From: Promethearchaeota archaeon
Lineage (GTDB): Archaea; Asgardarchaeota; Lokiarchaeia; Sigyniarchaeales; SOKP01
Reading direction: 5' to 3'
Length of the DNA stretch: 20,810 nt
Assembly (NCBI GenBank): GCA_016839745.1
Contig: JAEOTS010000061.1
Coordinates: 1-20,810 of the forward strand
This document shows positions 5,023 to 14,365 of the stretch, in pieces (the stretch's first letter is position 1; the number at the start of each line of letters is the position of its first letter). A program made the position numbers and the translations under genes. The notes under the pieces were generated by a model that had not been told where the DNA came from, did no database searches, and saw only the letters and a list, made by a program, of their open reading frames with translations.

Positions 5023-5050
5023 ATTAAGTTTAAAAAAAAGAATTGAATAA
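5023..5050 (+). promoter_or_regulatory. Conserved promoter motif ATTAAGTTTAAAA-N6-ATTGAATAA of paralog 1
   Basis: Same motif and spacing at 8507-8534. Both begin exactly 68 nt before an in-frame ATG (5091 and 8575). Contains TATA-like TTTAAAA. Confidence 0.7.
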
Positions 5051-5090
5051 TGTACCATACCGAAATTGGACGTATTCATATGAATTTATT

Positions 5091-7184
5091 ATGACATTAG
5101 ATATACAGTTGGTTAATGGGATTGGAAAAAAAACCGCAGAAAGAATGAAACAGAAAGGGATAGACTCCGTAGAAATATTAGCGTCATCGAACGTTGAAGA
5201 TTTATTAAAAATTAATGGTATTGGGAACGCTACTGCAAGAAGATATATTAATACTGCCCAAAACTATCTTGAAACCATTAAAGAAAAAGAAAAAGGAGCA
5301 AATATTATTAAAGAAGTGGTACGACCGTCCTCAACTAGCTCAGAAGCGATATTAGATGTTTCAAGACTCTCTGAGAAGAGTCTTGATATTGTTCAAGAAT
5401 ATCATGATAATATAAATGTAGGGGAAAGAGAGAAAAAGACCATTAAAAAAGAAAAAAATCAAATCCCTCTTAGTTTAGAAGAGTTTTTGGGTGAATCAGA
5501 GGCGTCTATTTCGGAAGAAATATTAGACAATTCGAAACTAACTAATGAAAAAAATATTCCTGGAGTACCAATTATCACTAATAGTCAATTAAAAAAAGAA
5601 AAAATTGCCCCCACAAAGGCAGAAATGGTAAAGCCAACAAAAAAGTCAACAAAAAAGTCAACAAAAAAATCAACAAAAAAATCAAAAAAGAAGAAAGATT
5701 TTGTTGAAAAAAAGAAGAATTTGTCAACCATGAAAAAAATAGGATCTCATCAAATAAAATCAAAAATTGAACCTCAACCAGCCAAAAAGCAACAATTAAC
5801 GCACAAAAAACAGCAATTAAGGCAAATAGATCAAAAAATTACATATAAACATAGTACAAAAATTATAGAAGAACCAAGAATGAAAAAACCGTTACTTAGA
5901 ACATTTTTCTCTCCAGAAACAATACAAAAGATTCGTTTTTTCCATTTTAAAATTAAACATTTAGAAGTGGCAATGCAAAAAAATGAAGATTTCTCATTCG
6001 ACGATCTTGATTCTATTGTAGATTATATAGATATCTTAAATATTAATTACAAAACTCAGAGCCAAATAAAAATCATAAAAGAATTAGATATTACTCCCTC
6101 TTTTTCTGATCCCCTTGAAAAGAAAAAGATAGAAATATGGGATTTAATGTTTGAATGTGCACGGGTATTATGGGTAGCGGCACAAGCATGTTCTTATCTT
6201 TCTAAAAAATTTGAATCTGAAGGTATTTTGAAAAACGCGATAGTAGCGATGGTAGAATGTAGTAAAATGTATAAGGCTGCAGCATATTTTAGCGCGGCGT
6301 GTACTCGCCAAGAAACCAGGGGAACTACATTGTCAGCTGGAAATCTTGAACTAAATTCTGAGGAATCTCGAATTCTCGCTCAAAATCTCGCTGCTATACG
6401 CGAAGAACAAAAAGAAAACCTATCAATGGCATCAAATCTATGTGCTGGATTAAGTGCATTAACAAAAAGATTGTACTTTTTAAAGAGATATGATATAGTA
6501 AAGAAAAAACAGTTAAAAGCTCAATATAATTACGATATAGGCAAAGCTTGTCATTTGAAAGCTAAATCATTGTTAGAAATATCAGATGATAGTGAAAAAC
6601 ATGAACGCATTGAAGAGATACAGAAAAAAGCTAATTATTATTTTTACAAAGCGGAAGAAACATGGGAATACATGTTAGTGAATTTAAAAGAACTTTCAAA
6701 TTATGAAAAGGAAAACATACAAGCTAATTTGTCAATCGTTAATGAACACATCATAGAAAACGATGTTGAAATTATAGAAGAAGATGAAGCCATGAAAATT
6801 CAAGATCCGGAGCCACTAATCATAGTCCCAGAAAATATAGCACCATTTTTACCAAGGACTACTAATTATCTGACTCAATACAAACCAAGAGATCTCAATT
6901 TTTCCGCTTATAGACGTTATAAAGATCTACTCTCAGAAATTTCGGTTGTTTATAACAAAATGGAAGAATTAAAAAATAAGAAAGCAGGAATCGGTCGAAC
7001 ATTGAAACAATTGAGAGTTTTGTATGATAATAATGATATTGATATCAGTGAGTTTACTTATCTTTTTGAAAAATATTCAACCAAACTCGTAACAGTTGAG
7101 AATGTTATTGAAAAAATAAGAAATCCTGAGAAAAGAAGCAATATTAATAAGCAACAAATAAAAGAAACTAAATCTAAAACATAA
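5091..7184 (+). CDS. HhH-domain protein with Lys-rich linker, putative Bro1-like domain and C-terminal steadiness-box-like hairpin (paralog 1)
   Basis: Tandem HhH motifs VNGIGKKTAERM and INGIGNATARRY (HHH_5/RadA-N-terminal-like). C-terminal ~410 aa strongly similar to 8575..10536. ATG 5091 preferred over TTG 5043 from paralog alignment and promoter spacing. CDS and HhH calls are firm; Bro1 and steadiness-box calls are by eye. Confidence 0.8.
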   Translation: MTLDIQLVNGIGKKTAERMKQKGIDSVEILASSNVEDLLKINGIGNATARRYINTAQNYLETIKEKEKGANIIKEVVRPSSTSSEAILDVSRLSEKSLDIVQEYHDNINVGEREKKTIKKEKNQIPLSLEEFLGESEASISEEILDNSKLTNEKNIPGVPIITNSQLKKEKIAPTKAEMVKPTKKSTKKSTKKSTKKSKKKKDFVEKKKNLSTMKKIGSHQIKSKIEPQPAKKQQLTHKKQQLRQIDQKITYKHSTKIIEEPRMKKPLLRTFFSPETIQKIRFFHFKIKHLEVAMQKNEDFSFDDLDSIVDYIDILNINYKTQSQIKIIKELDITPSFSDPLEKKKIEIWDLMFECARVLWVAAQACSYLSKKFESEGILKNAIVAMVECSKMYKAAAYFSAACTRQETRGTTLSAGNLELNSEESRILAQNLAAIREEQKENLSMASNLCAGLSALTKRLYFLKRYDIVKKKQLKAQYNYDIGKACHLKAKSLLEISDDSEKHERIEEIQKKANYYFYKAEETWEYMLVNLKELSNYEKENIQANLSIVNEHIIENDVEIIEEDEAMKIQDPEPLIIVPENIAPFLPRTTNYLTQYKPRDLNFSAYRRYKDLLSEISVVYNKMEELKNKKAGIGRTLKQLRVLYDNNDIDISEFTYLFEKYSTKLVTVENVIEKIRNPEKRSNINKQQIKETKSKT
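5635..5682 (+). repeat. 4 x 12-bp tandem repeat CAACAAAAAA(G/A)T encoding (TKKS)4
   Basis: Directly visible; protein reads KPTKKSTKKSTKKSTKKSKKKK. Confidence 0.9.
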
Positions 7185-8574: not shown

Positions 8575-10536
8575 ATGCACTCAATTATGCAAATAGCAAA
8601 TGGTATCGGTTTATTAAATGCAGAAAGAATGAAGCAAAAAGGAATAAACTCGATAGAAAAACTCGCATCCTCTTCTGTCGAAGATTTGATTAAAATAGAT
8701 GGTATTGGAGTTAATAACGCGATAAGTTACATTGAACTCGCTAAGAAGCACCTAAAGAGTATGAGGACAAGAGAAAGAATCCAAAGTATTATTAAAAAAG
8801 ATAAACCTAAAGAAATCTCAAGTGCAGAAACGAAAACTTGCGATTTAATGCTCTTTGGAAGGAACCAACATAAGATTTCTATAAATTCTATAAAAAAACT
8901 CGCTTCATCTAATGTAGAAGATATTTCCAGAATAAAGGGTATTGAAATATCGAATGCAAAAAGGTACATCGATATTGCGATCAAATATCTTGAGAGTATG
9001 AGGATATCCGAAAGAGAAGAAGATATAGCAGAAATAAAACCCCTTAAACAGAAGAAAGAAATTAAAATACCACACGACTCAAAACTAAAAAAAGTTTCTG
9101 TTTCATCAAAATTAAAAATGAAGGAATATCCTCAAAAACGAGCTGTTAAAACGCAGGATATTGATGGTAAGTTGACAAAGAGAGCCAGTCATGGAATTGA
9201 TATAAAATCAGGTCAAAAAAAAAAACCGAAAAGCAGTCCATCAATTCTGAAAACCTTTTTCCCTTTAGTTACAATGCAAAAAATTCGTTTTTTACATTAT
9301 AAAATTAAAAATTTAGAACAAGCACTATGGAAAAATAAAGAGTTTTCCTCTTCTGAGCTTAATTATATTTTAGATTATATAAAAATCTTAAATGTGAATT
9401 ATAAAACCCAAAGTCAAATTAAGATCCTTAAAGAACTAGACATTTCTAATACTTTCTATGATCCTTTAGATAAAAAAGAAATTAGAATCTGGGATTTAAT
9501 ATTCGAATGTTCGCGCGTGTTATGGGTTTCAGCACTAGCGTATTCTTATCTTTCTAAAAAATACGAAGCAGAAAATTTAATGGAAAATGCAATAGTAGCT
9601 ATGGTAGAATGTAGTAAGATGTATAAAACTGCTGCCTATTTCAGTGCAGCATGTACTAGGCAAGAGGATAGGGGGTCTACATTATCTGTTGAGAATCTTG
9701 AATTAAATTCTGAAGAATCTCGAATACTCGCCCAAGCTCTTGCTACTACAAGTGAAGAAAATAAAAGAAATTATTCAATGGCAGCGAAATTATCAGCAGG
9801 ATTGAGCGCTTTGACCAAACGATTAGCATTTGTTCAGAGATCCGATAAAATCAAGGAAAATCAGTATAAAGCTCAATATCAGTATGACATAGGTAGAGCG
9901 TGCCATTTGAAAGCCAAATCCTTATTTATATTATCACCTGAGGAAAAAAATGAGGAAAGATTAGAAAAAATACAGAAGAAAGCAAACTATTACTACCACA
10001 AAGCAGAAGATTTATGGGAAAACATGCTACAAGAAGAAAAACTATACCCTTTTGAGAAAGATTGCATAATAAACAATTTGTCAATAGTAAATGATTATAT
10101 TATAGAAAACGACACGGAGCTTATAGACGATAGCGAAGCATTGGAAATTCAAGATCCGGAACCACTTATAATCGTTCCTGAAAATCTGGCCCCATTTATT
10201 CCAAGAACAATTAGTTACTTAACCGTATACAAACAAACAGATCTTAATTTTGACGCTTATTTACGTTATAAGAATTTAATGGCTGATGTTTTGGTAAATT
10301 TTAGTAAAGTAGAAGAGTTAAAAAACAGTAAAGCAGGTATCGGTCGAACTATAAAACAATTAAAAATTCTCTATGAGAATAACGATATCGATATAAACAG
10401 TTTTACCGAGCTCTTCGAAAAGTATTCAATAAAACTTGAAACTATTGAAAGTGCGATACAAGACATTAGGTCTCCTGTAAATAAAAAAGAAAGGAATAAG
10501 CTAAAATCACCATTAATTGAAACTACCGTAAGGTGA
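8575..10536 (+). CDS. HhH-domain protein (duplicated HhH unit) with Lys-rich linker, putative Bro1-like domain and steadiness-box-like hairpin (paralog 2)
   Basis: INSIEKLASSSVEDLIKIDGIG and a second unit INSIKKLASSNVEDISRIKGIE. C-terminal region shares long identical blocks with paralog 1, e.g. NAIVAMVECSKMYK, AAYFSAACTRQE, NLELNSEESRILAQ, IQDPEPLIIVPEN, KAGIGRT. Confidence 0.8.
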   Translation: MHSIMQIANGIGLLNAERMKQKGINSIEKLASSSVEDLIKIDGIGVNNAISYIELAKKHLKSMRTRERIQSIIKKDKPKEISSAETKTCDLMLFGRNQHKISINSIKKLASSNVEDISRIKGIEISNAKRYIDIAIKYLESMRISEREEDIAEIKPLKQKKEIKIPHDSKLKKVSVSSKLKMKEYPQKRAVKTQDIDGKLTKRASHGIDIKSGQKKKPKSSPSILKTFFPLVTMQKIRFLHYKIKNLEQALWKNKEFSSSELNYILDYIKILNVNYKTQSQIKILKELDISNTFYDPLDKKEIRIWDLIFECSRVLWVSALAYSYLSKKYEAENLMENAIVAMVECSKMYKTAAYFSAACTRQEDRGSTLSVENLELNSEESRILAQALATTSEENKRNYSMAAKLSAGLSALTKRLAFVQRSDKIKENQYKAQYQYDIGRACHLKAKSLFILSPEEKNEERLEKIQKKANYYYHKAEDLWENMLQEEKLYPFEKDCIINNLSIVNDYIIENDTELIDDSEALEIQDPEPLIIVPENLAPFIPRTISYLTVYKQTDLNFDAYLRYKNLMADVLVNFSKVEELKNSKAGIGRTIKQLKILYENNDIDINSFTELFEKYSIKLETIESAIQDIRSPVNKKERNKLKSPLIETTVR

Positions 10537-11033
10537 CTCCTATATCGAAATTGAAAAAGTACCTTAAGACAAGCATATTTTATGTCATATTAGGAATTAT
10601 ATTAATTATTTATTTTTATAATCGATTATGGGGAATATACCTGGCAAGTTTTGTTTTCGTAGTATACTTAGTATTTTTTTTAATTTCACTTTCTTCTAAG
10701 AAAAGACTTCTAAAAATAATTCGAGAATATCCAATTATAAGCGACAAAGAAATTTCTCATAAATTGGAGCGTCCTTTAGACGACGTTAGGAATATTCTAT
10801 TCTCGTTATCTAAAAATCAGAAAAAGAAAAAATGGTTAGTAGTGTTTCTGAATACACGGTATATATTTCTCAACGAACAAGCAGTTGAGAATTTTAAACA
10901 ACTATACAATATGGGATACAATGAAAAAAAGATTCTAGAACATTTACAACGTAACACAAGAATCAAATCCAGAGCTGAAGTAAAAGCTATTGAACTCACT
11001 CTTGCCAATCAACATAGACTTAAAAAAGAGTAG
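10533..11033 (+). CDS. Two-TM membrane protein with cytoplasmic winged-helix/HTH-like domain(s)
   Basis: GTG start overlaps the upstream stop (GTGA). Two hydrophobic helices at aa ~15-54, then LLKIIREYPIISDKEISHKLERPLDDVRNILFSL (HTH pattern) and beta-wing-like WLVVFLNTRYIFL. Confidence 0.7.
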   Translation: MTPISKLKKYLKTSIFYVILGIILIIYFYNRLWGIYLASFVFVVYLVFFLISLSSKKRLLKIIREYPIISDKEISHKLERPLDDVRNILFSLSKNQKKKKWLVVFLNTRYIFLNEQAVENFKQLYNMGYNEKKILEHLQRNTRIKSRAEVKAIELTLANQHRLKKE

Positions 11034-11039
11034 TTGCAG

Positions 11040-12167
11040 CTAATTTAGCCCTTTAAATTTCTCTAATAATTTTCTCTGTTCTTCAGTTACTTTTTTCGGA
11101 ATTTCAACAGTAACTACTACGTATTGATCCCCTTTTCCTTTTCCCCTTAGATACATAGCCCCCCTATTTTTAATTCTAAATTCCGTCCCATGTTGGGTTC
11201 CCGGGGGTATTTTTAATTCCTTTTCGGTTAATTTTTCATTTTTATAATCTAAAGTTGGAACATTTAGTTCTCCACCTAAAATAGCAGTAACGATATCAAT
11301 GTCAATTTGAGTAAAAAGATCGTTTCCACGACGTATAAATTGGTCGTTTTCTTCAACTCTTATACCTAAATAGAGATCACCTGGAATAGCTCTGCTAGAT
11401 GGGATGTGACCTGCGCCTTGAACTTTTAAATGGACGCCATTTTCTACACCAGGAGGAGTCTTTACGTGAATTGTTTTAGTTTCAGCAACTACTTTTCTCC
11501 CGTTACATACTGGACACTTCTTCTTAATAATTTTGCCTGTACCATTACAAGTATAGCATTCAGCTTCACGAATGATTGTACCGAATCCAGATTGAGTCAT
11601 TTTTCTCACTCTACCTGAACCTTGGCATTCTGTACATGTCTTTATACTTGAAGGATCCTCAGCACCAGTTCCCTCGCACTCGTCGCAAGGTGTGTATCTT
11701 TGAATAACTACGTCCTTTTTCGAACCAAACATCGCTTCTTCGAAAGTAATCTCTACAAAATCTTCGATATCTTGCCCTACTTCTCGCCGAGGGGCTGATC
11801 TTGCCCTACCTCGGGAGCCAAAAATGCTTCCAAATCCAAAATCATCTCCTCCAAACATGCCCCCTCCAAATATTGATCTGAGTAATTCATCAATACCCGG
11901 GATTCCTCCTCTCATAAAACTACTCATATCAACATCAACGCCACTAAAACCGTATCTATCGTAATTATTTCGTTTGTTTGCATCGCTTAGGACTTCGTAA
12001 GCTTCTTGAAGTTCGATAAACTTTTCCTTAGCTTTAGGATCAGTCTTATTAAGATCTGGATGGAGTTGCCTTGCTAAACGCCTGTACGCAAGTTTAATAT
12101 CGTTTTCGCTCGCATTCTTATCTACTCCTAATACTTCGTAGTAATCTCGCTTTTTATTTGAACTCAT
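11040..12167 (-). CDS. dnaJ: Chaperone DnaJ (class A Hsp40)
   Basis: [13 protein letters not shown] motif, G/F-rich region, four zinc-finger repeats ([32 protein letters not shown]), IPPGTQHG. Confidence 0.98.
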
Positions 12168-12358
12168 TATCTAATTGCCACGTTATGATCTCTGATAAGT
12201 TAAAATTCTATTTACTAGAATTAATTATGAAATTTATCTTTTTAGGTGATAGGATATCTAACAAGAAATATTTAAACTTTTAAAAAATAATACTTATAAG
12301 GAACTCAAAATATAAGAAAAAGAAATAAAATAGAGTAATTTCACGTAACAGCGGGATT

Positions 12359-14365
12359 TTATTCGTCAGATTCTTCCCAATCTACGTCTACAACACGTTT
12401 CTTGTCTTTCTTCTTTTTATCTTGCTCCGCTTTATATGATGCTCCACCAGCACCAGCACCACCCATATCACCAGGTGGGACTCCGCCCATTCCTCCCGGA
12501 GGCATACCTCCCATTCCACTCGCTGCTTGTTGGGCCTGTTGAGCTGCTTGCTGATACACTTGGTCTTGAGATTGCTGCGAATAAATCCTTTGAGAGAAGC
12601 CATGCATTGATTTTTGAAGATTTTCTACTCCCAATTTAATTCTCTGAAGGTCGTCTGTTTTAATATCTTCTTCAAGAGATTTAAGAGCCCCTTCTATCTC
12701 GGTTTTCTCATTTTCTTCGAGCTTATCCTTGTTCTCTTCCATTAATTTTCTAGTCTGGTAGATCATCGAATCTGCGTTATTTTTAGCTTCGATTAATTCT
12801 TTGATTTTTTGATCTTCCTCTTCAAATTGTTCGGCGTTTCTTACTTTCTCTTCAATTTCTTCCGGCGTTAAGCCTTTTGCTCCTGTAACTGTAATACCTG
12901 TTTCTTTACCAGTCCCTAAATCTTTGGCAGTGACGTGAACAATACCGTCTGCATCGATCGAAAATTTCACTTCTATTTGCGGAATTCCTCGAGGCGCAGG
13001 TGGTATACCCGTAAGGTGAAACATACCTAATGGGATATTATCTTTTGCCATTGCTCTCTCTCCTTGCAATACATTAATTGTGACAGCTGGTTGATTATCT
13101 GCAGCAGTACTAAAAATTTGTTGTTTCTCTGTTGGTATGGTAGAGTTTCTCTCTATTAGTTTAGTAAAGACCCCTCCTAAAGTTTCAACTCCTAAGGAAA
13201 GAGGTGTGACATCTAATAATAGAAGATCATCAACATCACCAGCTATTATTCCCCCTTGAATTGCAGCTCCAATTGCAACGCATTCCATAGGATCAACTGA
13301 ATGTTCTGGTTCTTTACCAAAGAAATCTTTAAATCTCTTCTGAACAGAAGGCATTCTTGTTGGACCACCAACTAAAATTACTTTGTCTACGCTACTTGCT
13401 GGCATTTTAGCATCGGAAATAGCTCTCTTCATAATAGGATCTAGTCTTCTTAAAGTTGGTTCAATTAACTGTTCTAAATTTGCTCTTGTCAATTCAACTT
13501 CGATATGAACTGGGTTTCCATCTTTTTGAGTAATATAAGGTAAGTTAATTTGAGTATTTAGAGCGGTAGATAATTCGATTTTTGCTTTCTCAGCAGCATC
13601 TTTAATTCTAATCATTGCTTTACTGTCTCCCTTAAGATCGATCCCCTCTCTCTTTTGAAAGTTACCAGATACCCAATCTATAATCGCGTTATCCATGTCA
13701 GTTCCGCCCAATTGAGTATCTCCCGCAGTAGACAGAACTTCAACTACTCCTTCTCCGTACTCCATAATAGTGATGTCGAAGGTTCCACCTCCTAAGTCTA
13801 AAACGCAAATCTTTAATAATTTATTTTTTGTATCTTTATCGAGACCGTAAGCTAAACACGCTGCTGTAGGCTCGTTAATCATCCGTACAACCTCAAGACC
13901 AGCGATCTCACCAGCGTTCTTAGTGGCTGTTCTTTGGGCATCGTTGAAGTAAGCAGGAACTGTAATAACAGCTTTTTTTACTTCTTGACCAAGATATGCA
14001 CTTGCGTCGTTTTTTATTTTCTTGAGGATCATCGCAGAAATCTCTTCTGGGGCAAATTCTTTCCATTCAGCTCCAACTTTTATTTTAGCCTTATACGATA
14101 AGCCCATTTTACGCTTAATTGCTGTAACTGTCCCATCAGGATTAGATACTGCTTGCCTTCTAGCTGGTTCACCTACAATTTTTCTACCACTCTCATCAAA
14201 TGCTACATATGAAGGAAATGCCTTGCCCCCTAAAGTTCGTCCTTCGGCAGCAGGAACAATTTCAGGTTGACCAGTGCCGCTTAAAACCGCACACGCGCTA
14301 TTAGATGTCCCTAAATCGATTCCAATAATCTTTTCTTTTCTCTTTGGTTTACTTTCTTCACTCAT
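12359..14365 (-). CDS. dnaK: Chaperone DnaK (Hsp70)
   Basis: [64 protein letters not shown]. Confidence 0.99.

Follow-up and report, generated by a model that had tools for sequence, protein, structure and literature searches.

Organization of the locus

A 20,810-nucleotide stretch of the genome of a Promethearchaeota archaeon (assembly GCA_016839745.1, contig JAEOTS010000061.1), called the window here, contains two paralogous genes whose products end in a helical hairpin. [quoted passage not shown] It is located behind a Bro1-fold domain, which in the two window proteins is itself preceded by a putatively DNA-binding helix-hairpin-helix (HhH) head, and it is a putative assembly module that would pair with SB hairpins. 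All of the evidence is computational. A preliminary description of the window, made from the DNA letters without database searches, had proposed that the last helical segment of each protein, 59 amino acids long, aligns without gaps to the SB of TSG101/Vps23. The features of the locus are as follows.

5091..7184 (+): paralog 1 gene; HhH head, Lys-rich linker, Bro1-fold domain, probable SB hairpin, and basic tail
5109..5258 (+): HhH domain of paralog 1 (Pfam HHH_5, E 1.3e-12)
5898..6857 (+): Bro1-fold domain of paralog 1 (model residues 2–321), from Foldseek and VIA-align
6900..7028 (+): hairpin helix 1 of paralog 1 (residues 620–662); steadiness-box alignment begins at 6957
7029..7043 (+): hairpin turn DNNDI of paralog 1 (residues 663–667); Asn in place of the Gly seen in Vps23 SBs and in other members of the family
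7044..7121 (+): hairpin helix 2 of paralog 1 (residues 668–693); includes F, L, and K-Y, which are conserved
6945..7121 (+): 59-amino acid segment of the preliminary description, paralog 1 (residues 635–693); contains the SB-homologous core (~6957–7121)
7122..7181 (+): basic C-terminal extension of paralog 1; poorly conserved, low model confidence
8575..10536 (+): paralog 2 gene; architecture as in paralog 1, with the HhH head duplicated
10249..10470 (+): hairpin of paralog 2; segment of the preliminary description at 10294–10470
10533..11033 (+): gene for a small protein with two transmembrane (TM) segments; overlaps the paralog 2 stop codon

The open reading frame (ORF) of paralog 1 extends from a TTG codon at 5043 to 7184 and encodes 713 amino acids. 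Both its first ATG and the start of the family profile match lie at 5091, which is probably the true start. The paralog 2 ORF (8575–10536) encodes 653 amino acids, and across the last 450 of these it shares 64% identity with the ORF of paralog 1. Translation of 6945–7121 and 10294–10470 yields exactly the two 59-amino acid strings quoted in the preliminary description. Pfam detects HhH motifs at the N-termini of both proteins and nothing else, leaving the C-terminal 430 residues without a match. Relatives of these proteins occur in Loki-type Asgard archaea and are labeled in databases as “helix-hairpin-helix domain-containing protein” or “hypothetical.”

Predicted structure of the C-terminal region

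An AlphaFold2 (AF2) model was made of the C-terminal 429 residues of paralog 1, with 22 diverse relatives as input. In this model, which has a predicted local distance difference test score (pLDDT) of 83.7, a large helical domain is followed by a linker of low confidence (model residues 325–338) and by two long helices (model residues 336–378 and 384–409) that form a hairpin with a pLDDT of 88–91. The 77-residue tail modeled alone by AF2 was likewise a clean hairpin (pLDDT 94.3). The tail is thus predicted to be an antiparallel pair of helices of ~55–75 residues, and it begins ~15 residues ahead of the start given in the preliminary description.

The large helical domain has a Bro1 fold. The top 21 Foldseek matches are all Bro1 domains (E 1e-5), and VIA-align superimposes 276–298 residues on HD-PTP, BROX, ALIX, and Bro1p with Z-scores of 21–22.5; the next unrelated rows, which are TPR-like, have Z-scores of at most 12.5. 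The Pfam sequence model of Bro1 (PF03097) does not match the window proteins. The hairpin (residues 620–693) lies outside the Bro1 fold, past the end of this fold at model residue 321 and after the low-confidence linker, at the place where ALIX has its V domain. We considered whether it is a remnant of the V domain, the helical module that follows Bro1 in ALIX, and rejected this, as there is no ALIX V-domain chain among the structural neighbors of the tail and the sequence signal leads to SBs.

When the tail model was compared with the whole PDB by Foldseek, 10 of the top 11 matches were chains of the ESCRT-I headpiece, including yeast Vps23 (2f66_A, 2f6m_C, and 2caz_D) and human TSG101 (6vme_B), with a root-mean-square deviation (rmsd) of 0.5–1.5 Å over 53–60 columns. 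Yeast Vps23 also ranked first and second in a search of 48,161 chains that was independent of Foldseek (2f66_A: Z 9.7, rmsd 1.4 Å, 64 of 65 residues aligned). The structural ranking agrees with the sequence result reported below but is weak when taken alone; two-helix hairpins are common.

Sequence relationship to Vps23 steadiness boxes

When a profile of the family was searched against 151 Asgard genomes, proteins of 245–267 amino acids were matched at their C-termini by the tail columns alone. These columns also matched CDC48_N-SB-Zn-ribbon and Znr_CC_PH_SB proteins. The shorter proteins were examined by Pfam: those encoded at L060, L061, L066, and L068 bear UQ_con and UEV, and those at L060, L066, and L068 bear Vps23_core as well. 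By these domain assignments, the 245–267-amino acid proteins are Asgard homologues of Vps23/TSG101.

Hidden Markov models (HMMs) of the tail only were then run on the genome to which the window belongs, translated in six frames (23,519 ORFs), together with test sequences. The tail HMM matched the UEV-coiled-coil-SB proteins with E-values of 2.9e-9 (L060, 37 bits), 8e-9 (L061), 4e-7 (L068), and 7.5e-6 (L066); the best unrelated ORF reached ~12 bits. As these sequences had first been found across 151 genomes, their E-values carry a selection effect, but multiplication by 151 still leaves ~4e-7. Vps23 SBs chosen independently, by Pfam, were matched as well (L006, 9e-5; L008, 4e-4; L005, 1.4e-3), and an HMM built from the close lineage only still yielded an E-value of 2.6e-7 to Vps23 SBs. 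In pairwise BLASTP comparisons, the window tails aligned with two Asgard Vps23 SBs over 53 and 52 gapless residues at 25–31% identity (E 6e-6 and 4e-7).

The relationship was also found in the reverse direction. An HMM of eight UEV-Vps23 SBs was searched over 81 genomes of the class. It matched the tail in at least 19 members of the family from sister genomes, at best with an E-value of 4.3e-6, and Znr_CC_PH_SB was matched alongside them. A broader SB model placed paralog 1 fourth among the 23,519 ORFs of its own genome, level with the genuine Vps28. Profile–profile comparison by hhalign gave probabilities of 88–96% between the tail and accepted SBs. For the Vps23 SB the values were 95–96%, with P-values of 1e-8 to 4e-8 over 54–64 gapless columns; reversed profiles gave no more than 5% (P 0.03–0.06). 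The hhalign probability was 90% for the Znr_CC_PH_SB protein of the same genome and 0.5% for the N-terminal hairpin of Vps28. The tail family and accepted SBs are related by sequence profile in both directions, and on this basis the tail is homologous to the SB of Asgard UEV-Vps23 and, by way of the Asgard proteins, to that of eukaryotic Vps23/TSG101.

The alignment register proposed in the preliminary description is the one obtained when the alignments of the tail with Asgard SBs are chained with that of Asgard SBs with TSG101. The assignment of an SB-type hairpin in this register is supported by way of Asgard UEV-Vps23, by the reciprocal search, and by the top structural ranks of Vps23/TSG101, but the direct comparison with human TSG101 on which it had been founded is not significant by itself: against the TSG101 string of the preliminary description, whose first 37 residues agree with chain 6vme_B, BLASTP found nothing at E≤100, and hhalign returned the proposed register with a P-value of 0.052. 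Two objections had been raised along with the proposal. The first, that SHOCT might match better, does not hold: hhalign gave 1–6.5% for SHOCT as compared with 95–96%, and the Pfam SHOCT score of 12.4 bits (E 0.14, over 18 residues) compares with a cut-off of 27. The second, the lack of the usual turn glycine, is answered by other members of the family. Some closer members have NGD or SGD in the turn (NGDIDI, SGDIDI), and divergent 400-amino acid members from other Asgard metagenome-assembled genomes also have Gly there (REGSIS, NQGTIS), as opposed to NND in the window proteins.

Several results weigh against identification of the tail as a Vps23-type assembly module. Vps23_core (PF09454; gathering score 26.8 bits) does not match the window proteins or the isolated tails at E≤1, although the gathering score is also narrowly missed, at 22–24 bits, by bona fide Asgard UEV-Vps23 proteins. 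In the Pfam scan, neither the two proteins nor their tails taken alone matched Vps23_core, Mod_r, VPS28, or CdvA, and the only matches on the isolated tails were SHOCT and FlaC_arch (E 0.029). The reciprocal Vps23-SB model reached orthologues of the two window copies but not these copies themselves at E≤1e-3. Searches of PDB sequences by phmmer and hmmsearch, with the whole protein and two tail profiles, found no ESCRT-I chain at E≤10; one of the two profiles was poor, as three full-length rows had turned it into a 406-position model. A tail-only profile of close relatives found essentially the family alone across the 151 Asgard genomes at E≤1e-4, and the link to Vps23 SBs was seen only with a broader profile of the family, with a local search at a lower threshold, or with hhalign. 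No usable match was obtained with the tail in the ESM Atlas. On the structural side, the Foldseek E-values of the tail are weak (0.14–0.7), and the geometry of the hairpin is not specific, with Vps23 (Z 9.8) tied with generic hairpins and a Z-score of 8.4 still found at rank 50. In addition, no ESCRT gene lies near either gene in the window.

Distribution of the family and genomic neighborhoods

The unit composed of the Bro1 fold and the hairpin is present in 65 of the 66 genomes of the window’s GTDB family; the same query found it in none of 14 genomes from the class’s four other families. The hairpin ends all full-length members of the family, including the 400-amino acid members that are only 21–26% identical overall. 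No loci related to these divergent members were found in genome contigs or metagenome contigs. The genome that contains the window encodes a third paralog (contig C4, L025:1802–3049, +) of 415 amino acids, which has the Bro1 fold and SB tail without the HhH head. This short form is the universal copy, present in nearly every genome of the lineage, and the long HhH-bearing forms occur in some genomes. The family is represented by a single copy in many genomes of the lineage, so pairing of one paralog with the other, which the preliminary description had suggested, cannot be the general mode of assembly.

The neighbors of the two window genes are a BPL_N-like gene, the small 2-TM protein gene, and DnaJ/DnaK/GrpE. 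The 2-TM gene (10533–11033) is also found directly downstream of the paralog 2 orthologues in three other genomes (G023, G026, and, at 42% identity, G032). In many genomes the short-form gene has a convergent gene for a 158-amino acid multi-TM protein downstream and an ATP-grasp gene upstream. Two proteins of 520 amino acids from another Asgard genus (L114:1274–2836, +; L115:1310–2869, +) match the family profile in its Bro1-like part only (E 1e-16 to 1e-20), and have an acidic-repeat C-terminus without an SB hairpin.

Other SB proteins

A short UEV-stalk-SB protein was not found with the Vps23-SB model in the 66 genomes of the window’s family, but three of the other families in the class have one, and UEV has no match at E≤1 in the genome of the window. 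The SB candidates of this genome, besides the paralogs, include Vps28 (C66, L071:4371–4991), Znr_CC_PH_SB (C105), and two proteins of 466 and 626 amino acids; the genome seems to bear a sizeable set of SB-bearing proteins. Znr_CC_PH_SB (Zn-ribbon/PH-like/SB, 701 amino acids, L024:9852–11957, +) is the only place in this genome reached by Pfam Vps23_core, at 16–19.3 bits, and its gene adjoins an Snf7/ESCRT-III gene (11992–12651, −). The 466-amino acid (C115, L069:95–1495) and 626-amino acid (C127, L070:1385–3265) proteins have no Pfam match, and their C-terminal hairpins are matched by the Asgard SB model with E-values of 6.6e-8 and 0.3, respectively.

Further SB-like hairpins were encountered elsewhere. 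Proteins of ~280 amino acids in genus g33 (L062:1097–1948, −; L063; L064) combine CDC48_N and CDC48_2 with a zinc ribbon at the C-terminus and an SB-like hairpin, which the tail HMM matches with E-values of 1e-7 to 1e-5, and represent another SB architecture. A membrane-anchored protein of 262 amino acids without a Pfam match (L067:697–1482, +) has a C-terminal hairpin matched by the tail HMM (E 3e-7). The best PDB sequence match of the Asgard Vps23-SB profile (E 0.011) is the OST1/ribophorin I cytoplasmic domain of Ca. Prometheoarchaeum syntrophicum (PDB 8whn_A), which also ranks fifth among the structural neighbors of the tail (Z 9.4, 17% identity) and may bear an SB-like hairpin.

Discussion

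The tail resembles the SB of Vps23/TSG101 (PF09454; 2F66/2P22/2CAZ, 6VME) in the length of the hairpin, its gapless register, the shared hydrophobic and K-Y positions, and its location at the C-terminus of the protein. It differs from the Vps23 SB in having, in the window lineage, Asn for Gly in the turn, and in its score, which lies under the Pfam threshold. Unlike in Vps23, the hairpin is preceded by a Bro1 fold and an HhH head instead of a UEV domain and a coiled-coil stalk. Having neither of the latter, the window proteins are not Vps23 orthologues. SB hairpins on Asgard-specific multidomain proteins have already been described (Makarova et al. 2024, PMC10936438), and as in those proteins (Znr_CC_PH_SB cog.011556 and Vps22-SB), the hairpin here has been added to non-Vps23 domains. 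The same work called Bro1/ALIX orthologues not identifiable in Asgard archaea, and the HhH, Bro1-fold, and SB architecture was not found in its text or in the supplements searched. Eme et al. 2023 also reported a “Bro1,” but the proteins so named are short, were assigned by way of PF18097, and do not belong to this family. A literature search found no paper that describes the family combining Bro1 and SB. The tail is an SB on a new architecture, in an archaeal group in which SB hairpins on multidomain proteins are already known. To our knowledge, the combination of a Bro1 fold, an HhH head, and an SB does not occur in eukaryotes. In Asgard archaea, SB hairpins had been known only on Vps23, Vps28, Vps22-like, and a few other proteins.

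The main rival to this identification is that the tail is an SB/CdvA-type module that associates with itself, as a dimer or as a polymer like that of CdvA, lying along DNA that the HhH heads hold, rather than within an ESCRT-I headpiece. We regard this as unlikely. The HhH heads would supply a DNA-bound scaffold for such an assembly, the single family copy of many genomes and the lack of ESCRT synteny at the window genes would fit it, and a CdvA filament chain (9s9g_A, Z 9.0) is among the tied structural neighbors of the tail. The hairpins of SBs and CdvA have also been linked in published work (PMC10936438; bioRxiv 10.1101/2023.07.25.550441). The closest sequence relatives of the tail, however, are the SBs of UEV-Vps23, which act in hetero-assemblies, and Pfam CdvA (PF18822) finds nothing at E≤1e-3 in the genome of the window or in any of the 12 genomes of its genus.

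Considerably less probable is that the hairpin serves as an autoinhibitory lid, folded on its own Bro1 domain and freed upon activation. ALIX switches between closed and open forms, and the flexible, low-confidence linker (model residues 325–338) would permit the hairpin to fold back. An autoinhibited form has been reported for Asgard UEV-Vps23 (bioRxiv 10.1101/2023.07.25.550441). The hairpin is absent from every Bro1 alignment, which speaks against a lid, and such a function would be compatible with a Vps23-type SB rather than replace it.

The poorest account is that of a generic amphipathic hairpin, SHOCT-like or a plain coiled coil, whose likeness to SBs is convergent and uninformative about ESCRT; it is very improbable, for although the isolated tails yielded only SHOCT and FlaC_arch in Pfam, Vps23 does not stand out from other hairpins in structural Z-score, and known SB sets themselves give hhalign signal to SHOCT (34–75% and 39%), the HMM matches run both ways across the full hairpin length (E 1e-9 to 1e-4), the hhalign controls were reversed profiles that retain composition and helical periodicity, the SHOCT model finds nothing in the genome of the window at E≤0.01, and the protein also holds Bro1, another ESCRT-associated fold. 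SHOCT (PF09851) and the CdvA hairpin do share with the tail a short helix-turn-helix and the pattern L..L...G.I..(E/D)(F/Y), but SHOCT spans only ~25 residues around the turn, and neither of these Pfam models reaches the window proteins.

We therefore return to a Vps23-type SB that acts as an assembly module. In the ESCRT-I headpiece, the hairpins of Vps23, Vps28, and Vps37 are packed together, and by this precedent the tail would pack alongside other SB hairpins. Hairpins of the SB type serve as assembly modules, and an isolated hairpin has an exposed hydrophobic face that needs a partner; by analogy, the tail most likely pairs with other SB hairpins, for which Vps28, Znr_CC_PH_SB, the 466- and 626-amino acid proteins, and the paralogs are the candidates. 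A free-standing SB protein of Lokiarchaeota has been reported to interact with Vps28 and Vps22 in two-hybrid assays (PMC9192718). Complex prediction with the tail (query residues 330–415) and the N-terminus of Vps28 (residues 1–105) from the same genome, run without controls, gave a score of 0.00 against a mark of 0.32 and counts neither way. Through such pairing the tail would tether a Bro1-type module, presumed to bind ESCRT-III, to a headpiece like that of ESCRT-I or to some other protein with an SB, and the HhH head would bring DNA into the same assembly.

A more specific version of this proposal concerns the family-level lineage, in whose 66 genomes no canonical UEV-stalk-SB Vps23 was found. 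The proteins combining Bro1 and SB might take the seat of Vps23 beside Vps28, such that one chain joins the ESCRT-I headpiece to the Bro1 module and, via HhH, to DNA. This is a tentative idea that we consider unlikely.

Eukaryotic Bro1-domain adaptors link early ESCRT factors to ESCRT-III. The window proteins are like these adaptors (ALIX/PDCD6IP, yeast Bro1, HD-PTP, and BROX) in that a Bro1 fold is followed by a helical module. In ALIX, Bro1 precedes the V domain and a proline-rich tail with a peptide motif for binding to the UEV of TSG101, whereas here Bro1 leads directly to an ESCRT-I-type hairpin. A Vps23-type SB on the same chain is a second, independent ESCRT signature for the Bro1-fold family, and with it an ESCRT role of the family is much more credible than from the fold match by itself. 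The SB also points to a different wiring. ALIX reaches ESCRT-I through the contact of a peptide with UEV, but in these archaea the Bro1 module would be built into the SB assembly itself. Should the family indeed occupy the seat of Vps23, it would be an archaeal ALIX/CdvA-like adaptor that marks the site of ESCRT-III action relative to the chromosome, and would hint that Bro1 proteins once were integral subunits of ESCRT-I.

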